Shown here: piece by piece, positions 1 through 8,018 of the stretch
How positions within the stretch are numbered: position 1 is the stretch's first letter
Layout of the letters: each line of letters starts with the position of its first letter
NCBI GenBank assembly: GCA_038042445.1
Contig: JBBTED010000159.1
Coordinates: 1 to 29,331, forward strand
Reading direction: 5' to 3'
Source: Candidatus Firestoneibacteriota bacterium
GTDB taxonomy: Bacteria; Oederibacteriota; D2-FULL-39-29; JBBTED01
DNA: 29,331 nt
The notes under the pieces: generated by a model
Database searches by the model: none
What the model was told of the DNA's origin: nothing
What the model saw: the letters and a program-made list of their open reading frames with translations, nothing else
Program-made: the position numbers and the translations under genes

Positions 1-234
1 TGCCATAGAAAGTTGTTTTCTGGAATCTGTACCATTAAATATTACATCTTCCATATTACTTCCACGCAATGATTTTGCGCTTTGTTCGCCAAGAACCCAT
101 CTTATAGCATCACTTATATTAGTTTTGCCACATCCATTTGGCCCAATTACTGCTGTAATCCCCGGCTCAAACAATAATTCAGTTTTATCAACAAAGGATT
201 TAAACCCATATACCTCTAATTTTTTAAAATGCAT
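1..234 (-). CDS. smc: Chromosome segregation protein SMC, N-terminal part (continues past the left edge)
   Basis: Manual translation: [68 protein letters not shown]. It has GFKSF, Walker [10 protein letters not shown] and [14 protein letters not shown], typical of SMC. AGGAG RBS at ~244-248. Confidence 0.96.
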
Positions 235-292
235 TTTTCTATTCTCCTATTTAATATAATTTTCGTATATAATGTGGTATTTATTTATAAAA

Positions 293-337
293 CTACTATA
301 TATGGTATATAATCACAAAAAAGTGTATTTTTGTCAA
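293..337 (-). promoter_or_regulatory. sigma70-like promoter of smc with an adjacent NrdR-box-like palindrome
   Basis: Minus strand TTGACA (337-332)-N17-GATTAT preceded by TGn. ctaCtAtATaTgGtat (293-308) resembles the NrdR consensus acaCwAtATaTwGtgt. Confidence 0.5.
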
Positions 338-365
338 GTATTTTTGCGGGAGAAAACTCTAAAAT

Positions 366-800
366 TTATTCTATTACAAAGCCAGTAATTTCTCTCATTT
401 TTTTATTTATTATTATATTACAGTATTCCACACCATTAAGATTAATATACGGTGCAAGAATTTCTTTATAAAAGGGATTTGCATAGTGAGGTGATCGATA
501 GGGTATATATATTAAGGCGTCTATAGGCATGTTTGATAATGTTGGTATTGTTTCAAATTGTATTTTTAGGAAACCGAATTCCTCACTGTCTTTTTCATTA
601 CTAGTTTTTAACCAATTTATAGGTGGAGTTTTGATATCCGGTGAATATATTACAAGCGGAGATTCTAAAAGCAAATTAATAGTTCCATTATAATATGCAT
701 CAATGTTTGGTATATATTTTTTTAAAAAAGGCTTTTGTAACGGGATCGTACACAATGATGCCTTACCTAAACCCTTTTGTATTTTCCCTTTAATTTTCAT
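366..800 (-). CDS. Cassette ORF, distant CTP-dependent (archaeal-type) riboflavin kinase / DUF120-like protein
   Basis: KGKIQKGLGKAS, YNGTINL, RSPH and EILAP resemble the RibK motifs GxVxSGxGEG, PYPGTLN, RTxH and EIIAP. Begins 10 nt after the GTTAGAA core. Confidence 0.55.
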   Translation of the reverse strand: MKIKGKIQKGLGKASLCTIPLQKPFLKKYIPNIDAYYNGTINLLLESPLVIYSPDIKTPPINWLKTSNEKDSEEFGFLKIQFETIPTLSNMPIDALIYIPYRSPHYANPFYKEILAPYINLNGVEYCNIIINKKMREITGFVIE

Positions 801-810
801 TATTTTTTAT

Positions 811-892
811 TTCTAACAGTATAAACTCATCAATTCTTAACAGCTACGGTTTTTCACCACTATTAAAAATCTGATGAAGCGACTTGTTAGGA
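811..892 (-). mobile_element. attC site (82 bp)
   Basis: Minus strand TCCTAAC-aagtcg-CTTCATCA...TGATGAG-tttatact-GTTAGAA. The L''/L' arms pair with one extrahelical base and the spacer is unpaired. Confidence 0.88.
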
Positions 893-901
893 TACATACT
901 T

Positions 902-1501
902 TCAATAACCAAATAGCATGGAAAGGAACCCTTTTTTTCTTTGGTTAGCTGCCAAATTAACTTGGTTTGCTATTTCCTCAATTCTTGCGACATCGCCAGC
1001 ACGAATGTTAAATTGCGGCACAATAACGTTCATATGTTCATCATTTATATCGAGGTTTTTCTGAATCCATTCCAAACCACAAAGCGTCGAGGTATTTGCA
1101 TCTGTTTCATATCCTATTTTTGCTATTTCTTTTATCCTTTTGTTATACACCAGTGCAAAATCTCTAAATTCTTTATCCAACTGTTGTGATGCTAAAAAAG
1201 CGACTCCTTCGTTTGATTTATCTTCAGCTAATTCATACGCTGTCCTAAGAACAATGCTCTTCATACTCTGCTCCATCAAATCTCTCCGTAAAGTGGTATT
1301 GCTAAGATTTGACCAGACGCCATTTGCATAAGCCCAGTTAAGAAAAGAAAATATCTTAAAAATGGTAACGATTTGCTTTTCTGATACTAGCTTATTGACA
1401 GTTTCTTTCACAATTTGCAGAAAGAGTTCTTTGTGTTGATGAGCGTATTTGGCTCCTGCGTCTGCAATAAGATTACATAATTCCACCAAAGCCAAGTTCA
1501 T
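902..1501 (-). CDS. Cassette-encoded hypothetical protein (~199 aa; alternative start 1534)
   Basis: ORF between GTTAGGA (1534-1540) and TCCTAAC (886-892). GGAGG RBS precedes ATG at 1501. No recognisable family. Confidence 0.8.
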   Translation of the reverse strand: MNLALVELCNLIADAGAKYAHQHKELFLQIVKETVNKLVSEKQIVTIFKIFSFLNWAYANGVWSNLSNTTLRRDLMEQSMKSIVLRTAYELAEDKSNEGVAFLASQQLDKEFRDFALVYNKRIKEIAKIGYETDANTSTLCGLEWIQKNLDINDEHMNVIVPQFNIRAGDVARIEEIANQVNLAANQRKKGFLSMLFGY

Positions 1502-1533
1502 TTGGCAATCCTCCGTTTTTATAATCAGTTTCA

Positions 1534-1640
1534 TCCTAACAATTAATATACAAAGTTCCTAGTTACCTGCCTGCCGTCAGGTAGCTCAAAAACTTCCTAT
1601 AAATTTATCAAATTTTATCTCTATATTTGCTGTAAGTCAA
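1534..1640 (-). promoter_or_regulatory. Pc-like promoter followed by an attI-like recombination core
   Basis: TTGACT (1640-1635)-N17-TAAAAT (1617-1612), then a GC hairpin (1561-1586), then AACTTTGTATATTAATT-GTTAGGA. The GTT core has no matching attC left arm. Confidence 0.6.
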
Positions 1641-1656
1641 TAAATACTACTTTAAC

Positions 1657-1676
1657 ACTCAAATGATTTGTTGGGC
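1657..1676 (-). mobile_element. Truncated attC (R'' and start of L'' only)
   Basis: GCCCAAC-aaatcatttgagt lies 6 nt after the ORF stop and is the exact complement of this cassette's start core GTTGGGC. No palindromic right arm follows. Confidence 0.65.
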
Positions 1677-1682
1677 TTTTTA

Positions 1683-2333
1683 TTATTTCATGATATATTC
1701 ATTATATATTTGGTAAAAAGTATTCAGTAGATTTACTCTTTTTCCTTTTGTTTCTTCCTTTTTCAATACCCTCGACAAAGGGACTCTATAAAAAACATCC
1801 GCATGTTGCACATTAGGACAATAGCTTTGCTGTTCACTCATTTCTTTGCGTACTCTTTCATACAACTCACGCTCAGCTTCTTCGTAATATTCTTCACCAA
1901 CTTTGAGAAACATATTTTTTTTGTTTTCAGAATATTCAGAAAATGGAGCATTTTCTTTGATCCATGACTTCATTGGCTCCGTTTCAAGCTGATATAAAGC
2001 AGCATTCATGCCAATAAACTGAATAGCATCTTCAGGCACCATATTATCAACATATTTGCATAAACCCTGCTGTTCATCATTTGGTTCTGCGTCAAGTGTA
2101 TATAAGTAGTCAGCAAGCCATTCAAGATATTCATGGTATTCATTATCAGAAGTACATACGCCAATAAAATTTCCGTATTTATCTTTAGGAACTTCACCAT
2201 AACGATTATCTTTCCCCCATCTCACACCTACATATATAAGGCCGATAGGAACTATTTGTTCGTCCGACCTGCCGGGAAATGCCTTGCGTAAGATGTCCAT
2301 CATAGGACTATTGTTATTTCCATTTTTTTTCAT
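1683..2333 (-). CDS. Cassette-encoded hypothetical acidic protein (~216 aa)
   Basis: ATG at 2333 lies 8 nt after GTTGGGC. The track's start at 2384 falls inside the attC. Confidence 0.8.
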   Translation of the reverse strand: MKKNGNNNSPMMDILRKAFPGRSDEQIVPIGLIYVGVRWGKDNRYGEVPKDKYGNFIGVCTSDNEYHEYLEWLADYLYTLDAEPNDEQQGLCKYVDNMVPEDAIQFIGMNAALYQLETEPMKSWIKENAPFSEYSENKKNMFLKVGEEYYEEAERELYERVRKEMSEQQSYCPNVQHADVFYRVPLSRVLKKEETKGKRVNLLNTFYQIYNEYIMK

Positions 2334-2341
2334 TTTTGTTA

Positions 2342-2403
2342 GCCCAACATTAAAAATTACCTGCCAAGCCAAAAACTTAGTCAAGTGGACTAAATTGTTA
2401 TGA
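2342..2403 (-). mobile_element. attC site (62 bp)
   Basis: TCATAAC-aattta-gtccacttgactaag ttt ttggcttggcaggtaat-ttttaat-GTTGGGC. The upstream ORF stop TAA lies in R''. Confidence 0.8.
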
Positions 2404-3045
2404 AATAATTAATTCATTAGCTAAATATTCCAATAATTTTGTCATCTCATTTTGGTCGCTCTGCAGATGCAATTGCTCTATAATTTCTTGATTATTTATT
2501 TGATCACCTACCATTTCAATAACATATTTGCTGTTTAATATTATAGTATCTCTGTGCTCTATATTATGTACTGGTTCAAAGAATTGTATTGCACCAACTA
2601 AAAGTCTCGCAAAATTAGTTTTAGATAATCTATTTTTTGCACGCAATATAAATACTTCGTGAGAATGCTTATCCATATTATCGTTAAAAAAATCGTCATA
2701 GGCAGTTTTAATATCTTTGATAAAAGTGTAAGGTTTTAGTAAATCTTCAAGAGAGGTAAGTAGTCTGTCAAGAATACCTATAGTAATTAATAGTTTGAAT
2801 TCTTGACTATAGTCCTCTTTATTCATAATACTTATAATATCAATGATCCCAATAGTCATTAACTCCTTAGTAATATAATTTTCTAATTCATATTTTGATG
2901 GAAATCTCTTTTTAATGAGTTTACCGGATTTTGGTCGTTTATTATAGCCAAACGACTGCCATGTAGCATCATTATCCACAATGCCACCTATTATCCCTGT
3001 TAGGATATCTACTAATTGGTTTATATCATTTGTTTTATTTTTCAT
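2398..3045 (-). CDS. Cassette-encoded hypothetical protein (215 aa)
   Basis: ATG lies inside core GTTATGA (3048-3042) and the stop lies inside the complementary TCATAAC. Confidence 0.82.
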   Translation of the reverse strand: MKNKTNDINQLVDILTGIIGGIVDNDATWQSFGYNKRPKSGKLIKKRFPSKYELENYITKELMTIGIIDIISIMNKEDYSQEFKLLITIGILDRLLTSLEDLLKPYTFIKDIKTAYDDFFNDNMDKHSHEVFILRAKNRLSKTNFARLLVGAIQFFEPVHNIEHRDTIILNSKYVIEMVGDQINNQEIIEQLHLQSDQNEMTKLLEYLANELIIS

Positions 3046-3063
3046 AACATCTTATTCCCATAT

Positions 3064-3333
3064 TTATTTTATATCACCCTTACGAAATAGAAATTCCGTA
3101 AAACCTCCGCCACGTGATAGTTCAAATACAGCAATAAACTTAGACTCGAACTTTAATAGCTTGATTGCAGTATCAATACATGGATCAGAAACATATTGGT
3201 CAAAAAAACCGGCTAACTCCTTGGGTATTACAGCGCCTGAAAATTTCTTAATTAGGATACTCTTTGCCATCTCAAAATTACAGTTTTCAAGTTGCTCTCT
3301 AAGTTTCTTTTCATTCAGAAATTCATTTGCCAT
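3064..3333 (-). CDS. Cassette-encoded small hypothetical protein (~89 aa)
   Basis: ATG at 3333 follows GTTAAGA-GGGA (RBS-like). The track's start at 3354 overlaps the attC. Confidence 0.7.
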   Translation of the reverse strand: MANEFLNEKKLREQLENCNFEMAKSILIKKFSGAVIPKELAGFFDQYVSDPCIDTAIKLLKFESKFIAVFELSRGGGFTEFLFRKGDIK

Positions 3334-3345
3334 TATATGGTTCCC

Positions 3346-3404
3346 TCTTAACATAAAAATCAGCCGCCGATCTTTTTGCAGTCAGCTGTATCGCCTCGTT
3401 AAGT
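3346..3404 (-). mobile_element. attC site (59 bp, classic 59-base-element size)
   Basis: ACTTAAC-gaggcga-tacagctgactgc aaaaa gatcggcggctga-tttttat-GTTAAGA. The upstream ORF stop lies in R''. Confidence 0.92.
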
Positions 3405-3884
3405 ACGTTTTTTTGATATGTTTCCTTTTTCAGATTCTTCTTTCACCTTTTCCCACTCTGCCTTCAGCATTACTTGTGTCTCTGAGATTAAATCTCTGAG
3501 AGCTTCTTTAAGCTCGTTATGTTTACTTTTATCTGTTAAACACGGTATCTTATCTACTAATTCAGTAATTTTTTTATCAGCTGTGTCATTTGAATTCAAC
3601 CTAAGTTTTATGATATGTCTTAAATGATCAATCTGTAACAAAACATTTTGTTCATCGGGCTTACCTTGCAAATTTGAAAAAGACCATGTATAGGTCAGCC
3701 CACAAAATTTTGATATATCTTGACGTATCTGCTCACTCCATTCAATGCGTTGCTTTGTAACTGTGTTAATGAAATTAGTTTTTTTCGTTTGTAAATAGTT
3801 GTTAATTAGATTCCAAATACCGAGGATAAATGTTAATCCTATTCCAACGGCATAAACAATATCTTTAGTTTCCATAAGTTTCAT
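3399..3884 (-). CDS. Cassette-encoded hypothetical protein with an N-terminal transmembrane helix
   Basis: Hydrophobic IVYAVGIGLTFILGIWNLI followed by a helical region with KQRIEWSEQIRQDISKF. Bounded by GTTGAGT and ACTTAAC. Confidence 0.82.
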   Translation of the reverse strand: MKLMETKDIVYAVGIGLTFILGIWNLINNYLQTKKTNFINTVTKQRIEWSEQIRQDISKFCGLTYTWSFSNLQGKPDEQNVLLQIDHLRHIIKLRLNSNDTADKKITELVDKIPCLTDKSKHNELKEALRDLISETQVMLKAEWEKVKEESEKGNISKKRT

Positions 3885-3899
3885 TCATTATTCTTTTGA

Positions 3900-3971
3900 A
3901 CTCAACGCCAAAACTCACTGGCGCTTTAGTGCGACAGCAATAAAGTGTCCAATGCAGCGATATTGTTAGAC
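3900..3971 (-). mobile_element. attC site (72 bp)
   Basis: GTCTAAC-aatatc-gctgcattggacactttattgc tgtc gcactaaagcgccagtgag-ttttggc-GTTGAGT, a long imperfect hairpin. Confidence 0.92.
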
Positions 3972-4240
3972 TTTTTATTTATATATTTGCTTTTGAGAGG
4001 GTATTTTTCAGGATGCTCAAGATTGTCTATTTCTAAATCAACATCTAAATCTGGCCAATAGAGATGAAAACCATGAAGTAATTTTACATTTTGGATTGAT
4101 TTTAAGGTTTGGTCTCTAAAATAAGGATATTCATCGAAAGTCAAAAAATACTCTCTTCCTTTTACGAATAACCATATCCCAAACGATGAAATATTTTCAA
4201 CTGATACTGAAATGTTTTTTCCATTCTTTAATGATTTCAT
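3926..4240 (-). CDS. DUF2442 family protein (putative antitoxin)
   Basis: VENISSFGIWLFVKGREYFLTFDEYPYF...LYWPDLDVDLEIDNLEHPEKYPL is typical of DUF2442. The ORF reads into the attC. Confidence 0.85.
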   Translation of the reverse strand: MKSLKNGKNISVSVENISSFGIWLFVKGREYFLTFDEYPYFRDQTLKSIQNVKLLHGFHLYWPDLDVDLEIDNLEHPEKYPLKSKYINKKSNNIAALDTLLLSH

Positions 4241-4291
4241 TTTTATGCTTTCCTGTTTGATGTTGACAATTTCCAATTTCTTTTTGTCAAA

Positions 4292-4558
4292 TTATAATTT
4301 ATCCCATACAGGGATATCTTCTTTTGAATACTTTTTATTCGACATAATATTGTCGTAATTACTTAATATTTCTTCGCGGGTTTTATTCTTCAATATTTTT
4401 TGGATATACTTATTATCTTCAATTTCAACTATTTCTTTTGTAAATGCGAATAATGCAAACTGATTTATTGATACTCCTTGTGTATCAGATATTTTTTCAA
4501 TTTCATTTTTCAACCTTTTTGGTATACGAATAGTTAAAACACTAGCTTTATTTTTCAT
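4292..4558 (-). CDS. Ribbon-helix-helix (CopG/HicB-like) antitoxin
   Basis: VLTIRIPKRLKNEIEKISDTQGVSINQF is an RHH pattern. Overlaps the PIN gene by 11 nt. Confidence 0.85.
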   Translation of the reverse strand: MKNKASVLTIRIPKRLKNEIEKISDTQGVSINQFALFAFTKEIVEIEDNKYIQKILKNKTREEILSNYDNIMSNKKYSKEDIPVWDKL

Positions 4559-4982
4559 TTTTTTTCCTCCAATATTTCAAAAAATTAGATGAGGTGTCAA
4601 TTTTGAGATCGTAAAATTTTAATTCGGCATTATTTTTAAAATCACTAATATTTTGTGTGATAACCCAATCGGCATTGCCGTTTAATGCCAATTCAACAAA
4701 TATATTATCATCTTCATCTTGTAAATTAGGCCGCCATAAGTAATGTGGAATAATCCGTTTACCAATATAAGCAAAATATACCAAAAGGTCATCAACATTT
4801 TCTTTGGTTAAATTTAGCTCTCGAAGATTTCGCTTTAGAACTTCTTCATATTCAGTAATTACTGCTGTTGAAATCAGTAATGTCAATTCCCCTGACCTTA
4901 TTAAGGACAATATCTTATGCGATGCGCCTTCTTCACTATAGATTGCTTGAAATAGCACATTTGTATCTAATACTATTTTCAT
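4548..4982 (-). CDS. PIN-domain toxin (PIN_3-type TA toxin)
   Basis: MKIVLDTNV, EYEEVL, WRPNLQDEDDNIFVELA and VITQNISDF are the acidic PIN motifs. Confidence 0.92.
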   Translation of the reverse strand: MKIVLDTNVLFQAIYSEEGASHKILSLIRSGELTLLISTAVITEYEEVLKRNLRELNLTKENVDDLLVYFAYIGKRIIPHYLWRPNLQDEDDNIFVELALNGNADWVITQNISDFKNNAELKFYDLKIDTSSNFLKYWRKKNEK

Positions 4983-4988
4983 ATTTAT

Positions 4989-5017
4989 ATGATAGTATAT
5001 TTGCTATCACACGTCAA
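4989..5017 (-). promoter_or_regulatory. TA promoter with palindromic operator; probably a leaderless transcript
   Basis: TTGACG (5017-5012)-N17-TATCAT (4994-4989), 6 nt before the ATG. TGATAG-N8-CTATCA (4990-5009) overlaps the -10 and spacer. Confidence 0.75.
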
Positions 5018-5084
5018 GTGGTTTTTGATTTTAATTTTCATGGAGTGTCCCTTTCCGACTAGACGGATAATACTTTAGCTTATA

Positions 5085-5119
5085 AATCTCCCCTAACCCC
5101 TCTTTTTCAAAGAGGGGGA
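5085..5119. repeat. REP-like palindrome family A (CCCCT...AAAGRGGGG)
   Basis: aatctcccctaacccctctttttcaaagaggggga, with similar copies at 8203-8240 and 20676-20708. Confidence 0.8.
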
Positions 5120-5153
5120 ATTCTATAAAAACTTAAAACTATTATTGAGACGT

Positions 5154-8018
5154 CTACTTAATAAGACGTTTGTAGTATTCGTTTAGTAGTTCTTGGTAGG
5201 CTTTGGGGAATTTTTCTTTGAGTGCTTCTATAATGTCTTCTCTGAAACTTTTGGGGGGTTGGTATTCATCACGTGATGGAACTTTTACATAACCTTCTGA
5301 AACTCCCATATCTCCACTCTCTGACATTCCTTTTTGTCCTGGTTTTAAAAATCTAACTTGTGGCTTGCCTGCTCCTGACATTCCTTCACTTTCAATGCCC
5401 TGCATTAATGAATTAAATGCTTCCTTGCTATTAGAAAGATGTTGCAAGGCTTCTGCTTCTTTTGAAAGCGCACTTCCTGTATCAGCGGATTTAAGATTCA
5501 AAGAGGCATTATCCATAGAATCGCCGGCAATCTTCAAATTACTTTTTATATCTTCTACATTTTTGCCAAGTTCTGGATTTGCCAAAGAAAGTTTTTTGCC
5601 AAAATCTTTTACCTTGTCCAACAATTTATCTGTTTTGGATTTAGTTTCTTTTTGATCTGCTGAAAGTTTATTCAATGCTGATTCTTCTTTAGTTCTATAT
5701 TTTTCTTTTAACTCAGTATCTGCTTTTTTAATCTCATTTAAAATATCTATTTCCCTTAATTTTAATTCTTCTGATTGGGCAGTTGCATATAAAAGTGATT
5801 CTATTTTTTTATCAATTTTGTTTTTCTGGGTACTTAAAATTTCTATTTGCTTCTGCACATTTACATCTTCAGATTTATTTTTTGCTAATTCAGTGATTTT
5901 TTTTGACAATTCATTTTGCACTGGCTTATCTCTTTCACCAACACTTTTAGTAATATTCTCCATATTCTCCAAAGAACGAATTGCATTATTAACATACGTC
6001 AATAAATTTCTAAGCTGGCCTATTTGCAGCTCTGCTAATGCAAATGACATATTATTCAAAGCATCATTTCCATTATTCATAAACTGCGGAAAGACTTCAG
6101 GATAATTAAGTTCTATTGGTGCTTTTGATACAAGATTTTTAGTGTCATTTAATATTTTCTGTTGTAAATCAGCAAGTTTTTTTAGCAATTTTTCCTGCTC
6201 TGAAATTAGAGATTCTGTACGGTCTTTATCTTTCTCACCTGTTTTTTCAAATAATGCTTGTTCTTCTTTAATTATGTCCTCAAGTTCTTTTGAGCTTGAA
6301 TTTGCCTCTAAAGACAAACCTCTGTCCTGAAAAAATTTAGCGCGATTCCCTGCTTTTGCCATCATTTCCATTAATGAAGAAAGTTTTTCAGACAAAGCTT
6401 TGGCTAAAGCCAATGCTTTATCGTAATCACCGGAATTCAGACTTTCTTCTAATTCACGTAAAAATTCATTCATCTTCCCAAAATCCATATTTTTTACACT
6501 TTTAGAATCAAAGTATTCCTGTGGAAAAGCCTTTGAAAGCTCAGCAATACTATTTTGCAAGTTCTCCATTAATTGTGCTATACGTTCAATATCGCCTCTG
6601 AGTTTTTTTGTTTTCTCTTCATCCCATTTGCCGGACATTTTCTCTAAATCACTTAAGAAATCCTGTGTTCTTTTGTAGAGACGTTCACTATTTTTTATCA
6701 TATCTTCCAATTTTTCATCGTCTATATCTTGAGTTAAAGCTTCTATCTCTTTATTTACATCATACACCTGTATTTTAATAACATTTGACACGCCTTTATT
6801 AGGTCCAGTAATAACATCATTATCTGTAGCCTCCAAATAAATTTCAATTGCATCTGAAAATTGCAATGCAAGATTAGATAAATCCCATTCTGTTTCAAGA
6901 ATTTCATTTTTAAAAGGATTATTCCTGTTGCATATATTTAATCTGCTTATTTCTTTAGATTTTTTACATACTAAATCAACAGATTTAACTCCAAAATCAT
7001 CACTTGCTTCATAAATTATTTTTATTTTTGATTTTGGCAAAACCACTAAATCCTGTTCAGGTGACAAAATTTTGATTTGTGGATTTTCATCCTTAAGTGC
7101 ATAAACATAATTCACAAATGAACTCTTTGTTGTAATTTTCTTATAATCTTCAGCTTCAATACAATACTCAGCATCTTTTCTAATTTTAAACCATCCTTCA
7201 AGAGTTTTCTCGTCATTTACATTCATTTCAACTGGAACATCTTTTATATGAGAAAGTTTTTCATTGGCATTAAACTTAAGCATTAGAAATGCTTTTTCAA
7301 TTGGTTTATTTGCTTTTGCAGTTATACAAACATTGCTTCCAATAAGAGCTTCTACATTTCCACCATCTTTTCCATTGTAAGGAGCTAATTTTGTATATTT
7401 AGGTGGAAAAATTTTAACAGACACATCTCCAATTTCAGGCATAATTACCTTTACTGCTAAATTTTGTTCAGAATAATTTTTCAAAGGATGTCTTAATTGC
7501 AAAATTGCTTTACTAAAATCTTGTGTGCATATAAAAGCAAAAACAATAATACCAAAAGCAAGCACAGCAGAATATAATAATTTTATCTTAACAGACTTTA
7601 TTGGAAATATTTCTTTTAAATTTATTAACTCGATTTTTTGGGATATATTTTGAATAAAACTATGCGCTAAATCTTCAGATACATTTTGGAATGTATTTTT
7701 ATTAATTTCTCTTTCTATTTGTAGTGCATTTATTAAATCGTCTTTTAGATACTTATTCTTAGCCTGAATTTCAAGTGCCAAATCATCATCTGAAAAACCT
7801 GACAATTCTAAATTAAAGTTGCCTGCAAAAGAAAACAGTAGAATAAAAATATTTATTATTATTGTCCATATTGCAGGTATCCCTATTTGCACACCAATTA
7901 CAAAAAATGAAAAGAATAAAAAAGAAAATAAACAAATATTAGCTAAAAAATCTAATAGTAGTACATAAATTTTTCTTGTTTTTGTATGCTTTATAAATTC
8001 TGCTATTTTGCTGTGCAT
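5154..8018 (-). CDS. DUF4175-like membrane-anchored coiled-coil protein (954 aa)
   Basis: N-terminal TM helices, PPKYT, DENPQIKI...YEASDDFGV...ATDND beta domain, a long coiled coil and C-terminal PKAYQELLNEYYKRL. Confidence 0.75.
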   Translation of the reverse strand: MHSKIAEFIKHTKTRKIYVLLLDFLANICLFSFLFFSFFVIGVQIGIPAIWTIIINIFILLFSFAGNFNLELSGFSDDDLALEIQAKNKYLKDDLINALQIEREINKNTFQNVSEDLAHSFIQNISQKIELINLKEIFPIKSVKIKLLYSAVLAFGIIVFAFICTQDFSKAILQLRHPLKNYSEQNLAVKVIMPEIGDVSVKIFPPKYTKLAPYNGKDGGNVEALIGSNVCITAKANKPIEKAFLMLKFNANEKLSHIKDVPVEMNVNDEKTLEGWFKIRKDAEYCIEAEDYKKITTKSSFVNYVYALKDENPQIKILSPEQDLVVLPKSKIKIIYEASDDFGVKSVDLVCKKSKEISRLNICNRNNPFKNEILETEWDLSNLALQFSDAIEIYLEATDNDVITGPNKGVSNVIKIQVYDVNKEIEALTQDIDDEKLEDMIKNSERLYKRTQDFLSDLEKMSGKWDEEKTKKLRGDIERIAQLMENLQNSIAELSKAFPQEYFDSKSVKNMDFGKMNEFLRELEESLNSGDYDKALALAKALSEKLSSLMEMMAKAGNRAKFFQDRGLSLEANSSSKELEDIIKEEQALFEKTGEKDKDRTESLISEQEKLLKKLADLQQKILNDTKNLVSKAPIELNYPEVFPQFMNNGNDALNNMSFALAELQIGQLRNLLTYVNNAIRSLENMENITKSVGERDKPVQNELSKKITELAKNKSEDVNVQKQIEILSTQKNKIDKKIESLLYATAQSEELKLREIDILNEIKKADTELKEKYRTKEESALNKLSADQKETKSKTDKLLDKVKDFGKKLSLANPELGKNVEDIKSNLKIAGDSMDNASLNLKSADTGSALSKEAEALQHLSNSKEAFNSLMQGIESEGMSGAGKPQVRFLKPGQKGMSESGDMGVSEGYVKVPSRDEYQPPKSFREDIIEALKEKFPKAYQELLNEYYKRLIK

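Follow-up and report, generated by a model that had tools for sequence, protein, structure and literature searches.

The integron is usually described as one integrase gene, one attI site and one Pc promoter, heading one array of cassettes. The attI site carries the integrase-binding boxes DR1, DR2 and L. Clusters of two or more attCs with no integron integrase nearby are called CALINs and are usually treated as silent, headless leftovers. In the passages of Cury et al. (2016, PMC4889954) considered here, they are described as lying beyond the reach of Pc, with gene expression unknown. The gene-less promoter cassettes of Vibrio superintegrons, as described in the considered part of Blanco et al. 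(2024, PMC11014356), are short non-coding units bounded by attCs, with a sense-strand promoter directed toward the downstream cassettes. The attG sites, in the sections considered of Loot et al. (bioRxiv 10.1101/2022.09.11.507474), accept insertions outside the classical integron, beside ordinary genes, and have only GWT as their common motif.

We analysed a window of 29,331 nucleotides, which is the complete contig of a 2.8-Mb, 32% GC, 90%-complete groundwater-metagenome MAG. A run of genes lies on its minus strand from ~5000 to 366, flanked by a DUF4175 gene and smc. We suggest that the stretch 1676-1534 in this run is probably a composite junction in an integrase-less cassette array, consisting of an attC remnant, a 116-nt Pc/attI-type head and the next cassette (Table 1). 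All the elements named in the original prediction (promoter, hairpin, boxes and GTTAGGA) were found on the minus strand. The junction is not an assembly artefact, as independent assemblies span it: contigs of two other studies in the Logan collection bridge it with 0 differences (X4, 1437-2509; X5, 1471-1796), and the probable source run X1 also bridges it.

The head appears to share with attI/Pc platforms (for instance, attI1 with Pc of the class 1 integrons) a double-stranded-type site at the array 5' edge with the crossover at G/TTRRRY (the slash marks the crossover), and a constant left and a cassette-specific right side of this crossover; a promoter reading into the cassettes is predicted upstream of it. 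In contrast to these platforms, an intI gene is adjacent in 0 of the 14 copies that we compared (one copy has a 54-codon remnant), the site is located inside an array and is present in two copies in the genome, and counterparts of the DR1, DR2 and L boxes were not identified in the platform. The window agrees with the CALIN description in the considered passages of Cury et al. (PMC4889954), because a 29-kb contig without an integrase has four model-supported attCs (E<1) on one strand, the minus strand; unlike the CALINs of these passages, the array has a conserved attI-type head with a predicted promoter.

The short non-coding unit with a sense-strand promoter toward downstream cassettes is shared with the Vibrio promoter cassettes, as far as the considered part of Blanco et al. 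(PMC11014356) describes them, but those are bounded by attCs, whereas the unit here is closed by an attI-type core. Our covariance model detected no attC within 1655-1540, and no R'' box complementary to TTAAAG was found there. A location outside the classical integron, beside ordinary genes, is shared with the attG insertions in the considered sections of Loot et al. (10.1101/2022.09.11.507474). In contrast to GWT, the heads share 22 identical bases and a similarity of 24-165 nt to the left. An attG-type insertion could explain the entry of the upstream cassettes at GTT 1656, by analogy with the sites in these sections. The 22-nt core sequence was not found in the literature searched, and no description of conserved integrase-less attI heads was found in this literature.

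Table 1. Features of the cassette array around the junction and ends of the insertion sequence that interrupts the assembly. Strands and positions refer to the window unless a contig is named. R1, covariance model of attCs.
Feature	Position	Strand	Remarks
attC after the PIN/antitoxin/DUF2442 genes	3900..3971	-	GTCTAAC...GTTGAGT; R1 51.1 bits; itself an R1 training sequence
attC, weak	3346..3404	-	ACTTAAC...GTTAAGA; R1 12.4 bits, E 0.87; boundary logic one base off
attC of the preceding two-gene cassette	2342..2403	-	TCATAAC...GTTGGGC; R1 20.9 bits, E 0.007
Upstream cassette	1656..2347	-	starts TTGGGC (2347-2342, after G2348 of the preceding attC); suggested end G1656
R'' box GCCCAAC	1676-1670	-	followed by aaatcatttgagt
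Putative collapsed attC	1650..1676	-	R'' GCCCAAC 1676-1670, 13-nt spacer AAATCATTTGAGT, R'-like GTTAAAG 1656-1650; without the central L''/loop/L' hairpin
Head unit, 116 nt	1540..1655	-	non-coding; predicted promoter, hairpin and core; G/TT at both sides
Predicted Pc-like promoter	1612..1640	-	TTGACT-17 nt-TAAAAT; sigma-70-type, scores 10 of 12; aimed at the next cassette
GC-rich hairpin	1561..1586	-	AGCTACCTG-ACGGCAGG-CAGGTAACT; within the 39-nt segment missing from the C47 copy
attI-type core, 22 nt	1536..1557	-	AACTTTGTATATTAATTG/TTAG = AACTTTGTATATTAATTGTTAG; crossover G1540/T1539
Module end	last base 1534	-	AACTTTGTATATTAATT/GTTAGGA; sequence reading
Downstream cassette	817..1539	-	starts TTAGGA; 210-aa ORF; ends with the attC 892-811
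attC closing the downstream cassette	892-811	-	R'' TCCTAAC; R' GTTAGAA 817-811; R1 17.4 bits, E 0.05
IS ends	L010:1-54 (= C47:1-54); ends of C21, C89, C170, C108, C14, C37, C72, C109, C139		multi-copy IS

The attCs were detected with the covariance model R1, which was trained on seven metagenome attCs and one attC of the window. The start of the upstream cassette, TTGGGC, is exactly complementary to the R'' box GCCCAAC of the same cassette (6/6 bases), and the R'' box TCCTAAC of the cassette beginning TTAGGA is complementary to the R' box of the head (7/7). The upstream cassette encodes an ORF of 216 codons (ATG 2333 to the stop 1685-1683, as read from the sequence; 233 aa with a TTG start at 2384), for which no Pfam family was found. 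The ORF of the downstream cassette starts at ATG 1534 or, more likely, at ATG 1501 behind GGAGG, and it had no Pfam family above the cut-off. The first cassette-like unit of the run (3926-5094) encodes a PIN-domain toxin, a small antitoxin-like protein and DUF2442; it has its own promoter-like site at 5017-4989, and its start, GTTAGGG, adjoins a GC hairpin that follows the DUF4175 gene. We considered the head of this upstream array (~5094) as a diverged copy of the module and rejected it, as the alignment scores were within the shuffled range, and this dissimilarity counts against the composite reading. Likewise rejected was the idea that the gene at 366-800, after the last attC, is native and stands behind an empty attI like the gene in C47 (proteins unrelated, E 12).

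The attC of the upstream cassette starts normally with GCCCAAC, as the original prediction had stated. It had also been described as breaking off there, with a promoter/attI module in place of the attC right arm, and this part is unsupported as worded: the attC is not simply broken off because an R'-like GTTAAAG, which had been overlooked, sits 13 nt past R'' and points to a hairpin-less attC remnant. In the string GCCCAAC-AAATC-A-TTTGAGT-GTTAAAG the spacers resemble those beside the R boxes of the four model-supported attCs, and the sequence suggests an attC remnant complete in R boxes and both unpaired spacers, whose central hairpin would have been lost. With GTTAAAG as the R' box, the upstream cassette would end at G1656, suggesting a boundary at G1656/T1655, and the head unit would be 1655-1540. 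A GTTRRR beginning 8-20 nt after RYYYAAC is present at 101 of 4343 sites (2.3%) in this genome, and the GTTAAAG boundary could be a matter of chance (~2%, a post hoc estimate), which weighs against the composite reading.

The whole stretch 1676-1534 did not fold as one long attC, the outcome that the original prediction had named as speaking against it. On such a reading, the attC of the upstream cassette would be 143 nt long, and the promoter would lie by chance in its branched variable loop. The R'' box complements the first bases of the cassette and the stretch finishes in GTTAGGA; the ends pair once the R' box is circularised, with three small hairpins forming inside; and lengthy attCs are known from related arrays (132 nt in the contig L028). 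The fold energy is -0.113 kcal/mol per nt, close to that of the short neighbouring attCs (-0.058 to -0.172), and the arm-pairing test (inner-arm duplex energy compared with shuffles) found the stretch indistinguishable from the short attCs of the window; energy per base and arm pairing do not discriminate, because these short attCs themselves fold weakly. On the other side, the L''/L' pairing is absent, and both strands of 1676-1534 fold branched, closed by the R boxes only, with z-scores of only -2.06 and -1.51. R1 had no hit at E<=10 on the minus strand of 1676-1534, while the four window attCs were found, and it detects the 132-nt attC with an AT-rich centre in L028 (37.8 bits). The supposed right arm is, in addition, the 22-mer that heads arrays directly behind housekeeping genes, with no cassette or R'' partner before it. 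The long-attC reading is thus already disfavoured, and we regard it as very unlikely. Finding attCs by ungapped complementarity or by a strict energy threshold was tried and rejected, as known sites were missed.

According to the genome search, the module has one other copy in this genome, at C47:67-132, with the 22-nt core exact at C47:111-132. Both promoter hexamers (C47:67-95) and the core are the same, one C/T difference apart, and the promoter spacer differs at 6 of 17 positions. The C47 copy is without the 39 nt that contain the hairpin, and the hairpin at 1586-1561 occurs once in this genome. The start of C47 is the end of a multi-copy IS, and the native neighbour of the C47 head is folP, ~370 nt away, since a 9-bp target duplication (CAAAACGAT) joins the start of C47 to the end of C72; no integrase was found at this C47/folP head. 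The IS has a 21-nt terminal inverted repeat and breaks many contigs of the MAG. Of the five contigs that have one of the end types, four show a TTGAC (-35-like) motif 10-14 nt past the IS end, as if insertion occurs just upstream of promoters.

The exact-match search of metagenome contigs detected the 22-mer in 12 contigs, and all 12 are array-head-like. The apparent perfection of the core is partly an ascertainment effect, because these copies were picked by exact match, which inflates the apparent conservation; degenerate heads exist (the first heads of L030 and L021, and site A of L028). Between loci, similarity is limited to the 24-165 nt that lead up to the crossover, and the GC content varies from 33 to 48%. 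The similarity stops at GTTAG in 14/14 copies, all downstream sequences differ, and the base after GTTAG is a purine in 13 of them; the left half is constant whichever cassette follows. In eight of nine testable arrays, both variable bases behind GTTAG agree with the R'' box of whichever attC comes first downstream. A constant left side and a varying right side, together with the R'' match, therefore indicate an integron insertion junction. As far as sequence comparison goes, the copies show the core to be a site-specific junction where differing cassettes were joined in many genomes, and the junction base and the R''-box covariation to be those of integron-integrase recombination.

R1 detected 10 distinct attCs at E<=1 over 13 loci (7 of the 10 being its own training sequences), all downstream of the core and on its strand; none was found upstream of the core at this threshold in the 13 loci. 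The attCs follow the core in seven loci and in the window. The site thus lies where an attI would, bordering a cassette array on the 5' side and with G/TTRRRY as its crossover. The ORFs upstream of the head are housekeeping genes in 6 of 12 loci (E1 dehydrogenase, dihydroorotate dehydrogenase, methylpurine glycosylase, hydroxyacyl-CoA dehydrogenase, sigma-54 regulator and ABC ATPase), have no Pfam family in five, and in one there is too little DNA.

The position of the 22-mer between the promoter and the first gene also brings to mind a regulatory leader or operator common to unrelated operons, rather than a recombination site. A short palindrome is present within it in several loci, and a second palindromic copy is located ~130 nt upstream in L022 and L026. 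Against an operator stand a similarity that halts exactly at GTTAG, two following bases that covary with an R'' box several hundred bases downstream in 8/9 arrays, and attCs coming after the site in so many loci. No Rfam family matched (1-5300, E<=1). We consider the operator explanation extremely improbable.

The promoter match taken alone is not beyond chance: the AT-rich 5-kb region has 20 promoter-like sites compared with 25.9 +/- 4.8 in shuffles, with no enrichment. The module is non-random because promoter and core are conserved, in the second genomic copy and, for the core, in the 12 metagenome contigs. We surveyed the 13 heads with enough upstream sequence (L023, with 41 nt only, was dropped). 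Two-hexamer sites scoring >=10 of 12 are present in 3/13 heads versus 2.1% of background windows, and extended -10 sites in five further heads versus 2.7% of background. Either promoter type is present in 8 of the 13, and the five heads with neither by strict criteria speak against the composite reading. We read the site at 1612..1640 as a predicted Pc-like promoter reading into the next cassette.

No integron integrase was found in this MAG, which is 90% complete and broken by IS copies, the best score being 90.4 bits versus a cut-off of 265; the adjacency to intI that is typical of attI is therefore missing in both the window and the MAG, and the lack of an enzyme for the site here counts against the composite reading. 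An atypical Xer-like integrase serving the arrays was considered and rejected, as the scores mark the two candidates as an ordinary XerD and an ordinary XerC. The original prediction had asked whether related sequence is found next to intI genes or repeated at other cassette clusters. The second part is confirmed by the 13 other contexts in which the core heads arrays; as to the first, no intact recombinase is adjacent to the 13 other copies in the flanking DNA examined, and an integrase remnant lies beside one of them, L032. This is a 54-aa fragment (L032:1561-1725, minus strand), which precedes the core by ~120 nt and matches the integron integrase family TIGR02249 best (E 1.4e-11), at profile positions 272-315 of 315, the last 44. 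The remnant ends in an SPLD-type tail and is cut off at a short motif that is similar to the core's left part. The heads are linked to IntI only by the junction logic and this one fragment, because one of 13 heads has a remnant and none is beside an intact intI. The proposal of a Pc-attI platform without intI is thus backed by the comparison: 13 other contexts, conservation ending at G/TTAG, 8/9 R''-box covariation, attCs solely downstream of the heads, and an integrase remnant at one head with none in the MAG.

Two origins had been offered for this platform, a deletion of intI that fused two arrays, or a portable unit. They are not the sole options, and neither is demonstrated by our data. 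If two arrays were fused, an intI-Pc-attI platform would have stood behind another array, and intI together with the right half of the last attC would have been lost in a deletion that began within this attC and stopped shortly before the promoter. The locus L032 shows that deletions reach the platform: an integron integrase is reduced there to its final 54 codons, which precede the core by ~120 nt. In addition, intI pseudogenes are reported near 15/279 CALINs in the considered passages of Cury et al. (2016, PMC4889954). A random deletion, however, is not expected to leave GTTAAAG 13 nt after R'' with attC-like spacers, the window has no integrase fragment, and a fusion presupposes an array that leads into intI from its 3' end, which was seen in no locus here. 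We judge such a fusion unlikely.

The boundaries upstream of the heads bear on the portable unit. A GTT precedes the core at 97 nt in L021, 112 nt in L030, 132 nt in L028 and 133 nt in L032, compared with the 116-nt unit of the window; the GTT of L028 is part of a second core-like site, in which a related GC hairpin is found as well. A GTTAA is present 95-135 nt upstream of the core in 4/14 heads versus ~0.08 expected per head, which is a post hoc count. Taken together, the boundary observations are post hoc and modestly above chance only. In run X4 (record 7), we observed a 153-nt contig in which the promoter segment differs from window 1590-1644 at 5 of 55 nt and both flanks are different; the left flank, although another sequence than in the window, also ends in GTTAATG. 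The contig is probably a third head copy, in a related organism.

These units could have been mobile themselves: the 116-nt unit (TTAAAG...promoter...core-G) would have been excised as a small circle with an attI-type site and re-inserted by the integrase at the upstream attC, spreading promoter and docking-site units into arrays and beside chromosomal genes. The G/TT on both sides of the unit agrees with this, as do the similar-sized GTT-bounded units before the cores of the four loci above, with their post hoc GTTAA count, the X4 contig having the promoter part behind another flank, and the two unit copies in this genome. The L021 unit follows a 38-nt attC-like site (10.9 bits), and the L028 unit follows the second core-like site. 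Several observations point the other way: GTTAA is missing from the left edge of the C47 copy, whose similarity to the window begins only ~5 nt ahead of the -35; R1 does not support the apparent attC in front of the L030 unit at E<=1; GTT is common and the boundary statistics are post hoc; and neither a circular form nor an empty site was seen. We regard a portable head as a tentative, rather unlikely alternative.

The favoured origin is a resident platform with a second entry point, which fits at least as well as the two origins offered before. An IntI-type integrase, acting in trans or since lost, would bind the double-stranded core and insert folded attC cassettes at G/TT. The promoter would transcribe the inserted cassettes as Pc does, restarting expression for the last cassettes before smc. 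The least certain steps concern the history of the locus: the platform may have been resident here, like its sister copy beside folP, and the four upstream cassettes may have entered at the second GTT, 116 nt upstream of the core and just before the promoter. The head would look mid-array now because of this proposed entry of the upstream cassettes.

A conserved docking site with a predicted promoter heads integrase-less arrays at many chromosomal places, two of them in this genome and one of these two inside an array, suggesting that docking sites of this kind are able to persist and work apart from the recombinase gene. If the sites are active, several arrays could be served in trans by one integrase, the cassettes of CALINs could be expressed, and an array could acquire a second point of entry and of expression. 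As a search pattern or PCR anchor, the 22-nt core could lead to the first-position cassettes of this lineage in metagenomes and to the cognate integrase. Tentatively, and with rather low probability, the promoter-attI head could be a mobile circle of ~100-130 nt bounded by crossover points, having a docking site instead of an attC and served by an integrase in trans. If this is true, new expressed arrays would be seeded beside chromosomal genes and inside existing arrays, and integron platforms would multiply and move without their own integrase gene, the integrase coming from elsewhere or from another element.

Other collections were also searched for the module. Among 60 related genomes there was no credible match, and 99 genomes of the phylum contained a single core with 2 mismatches, in G092 (L035:1430-1525). 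The core-like 22-mer of G092 lies ~50 nt downstream of an extended -10 motif, TGTTATAAT, as in the heads of L027, L030 and L031, and no attC was found within 1.5 kb of it; it may be a decayed or empty head. The promoter pattern had two matches in genome contigs, both in Clostridia MAGs (L033, L034) and taken as chance. Viral contigs had 0 matches. In plasmids, the L026 head was unmatched and the window module had two AT-rich 37-nt matches only.

Additional repeated elements were observed near the heads. In L028 a small GC-rich palindrome is present three times (original coordinates ~2969-2990 and 4150-4175, and weaker near 5310-5330), one of them inside the second core-like site, which precedes the head by 132 nt. 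The window hairpin at 1586-1561 resembles these palindromes, a likeness that may point to a common ancestry of the heads or to their transfer. In L022 (520-545) and in L026, the second, palindromic copy is of the left part of the core and is located upstream of the promoter, which is thus flanked by two related sites; the palindrome presumably resembles an arm of the phage P1 lox site. Finally, a segment of ~40 nt (CCTTGCATCTGGAC...TTTTTGA...) was detected upstream of three heads in unlike contexts: L024:458-499, L021:1-42 and L031 (oriented ~3190-3230).
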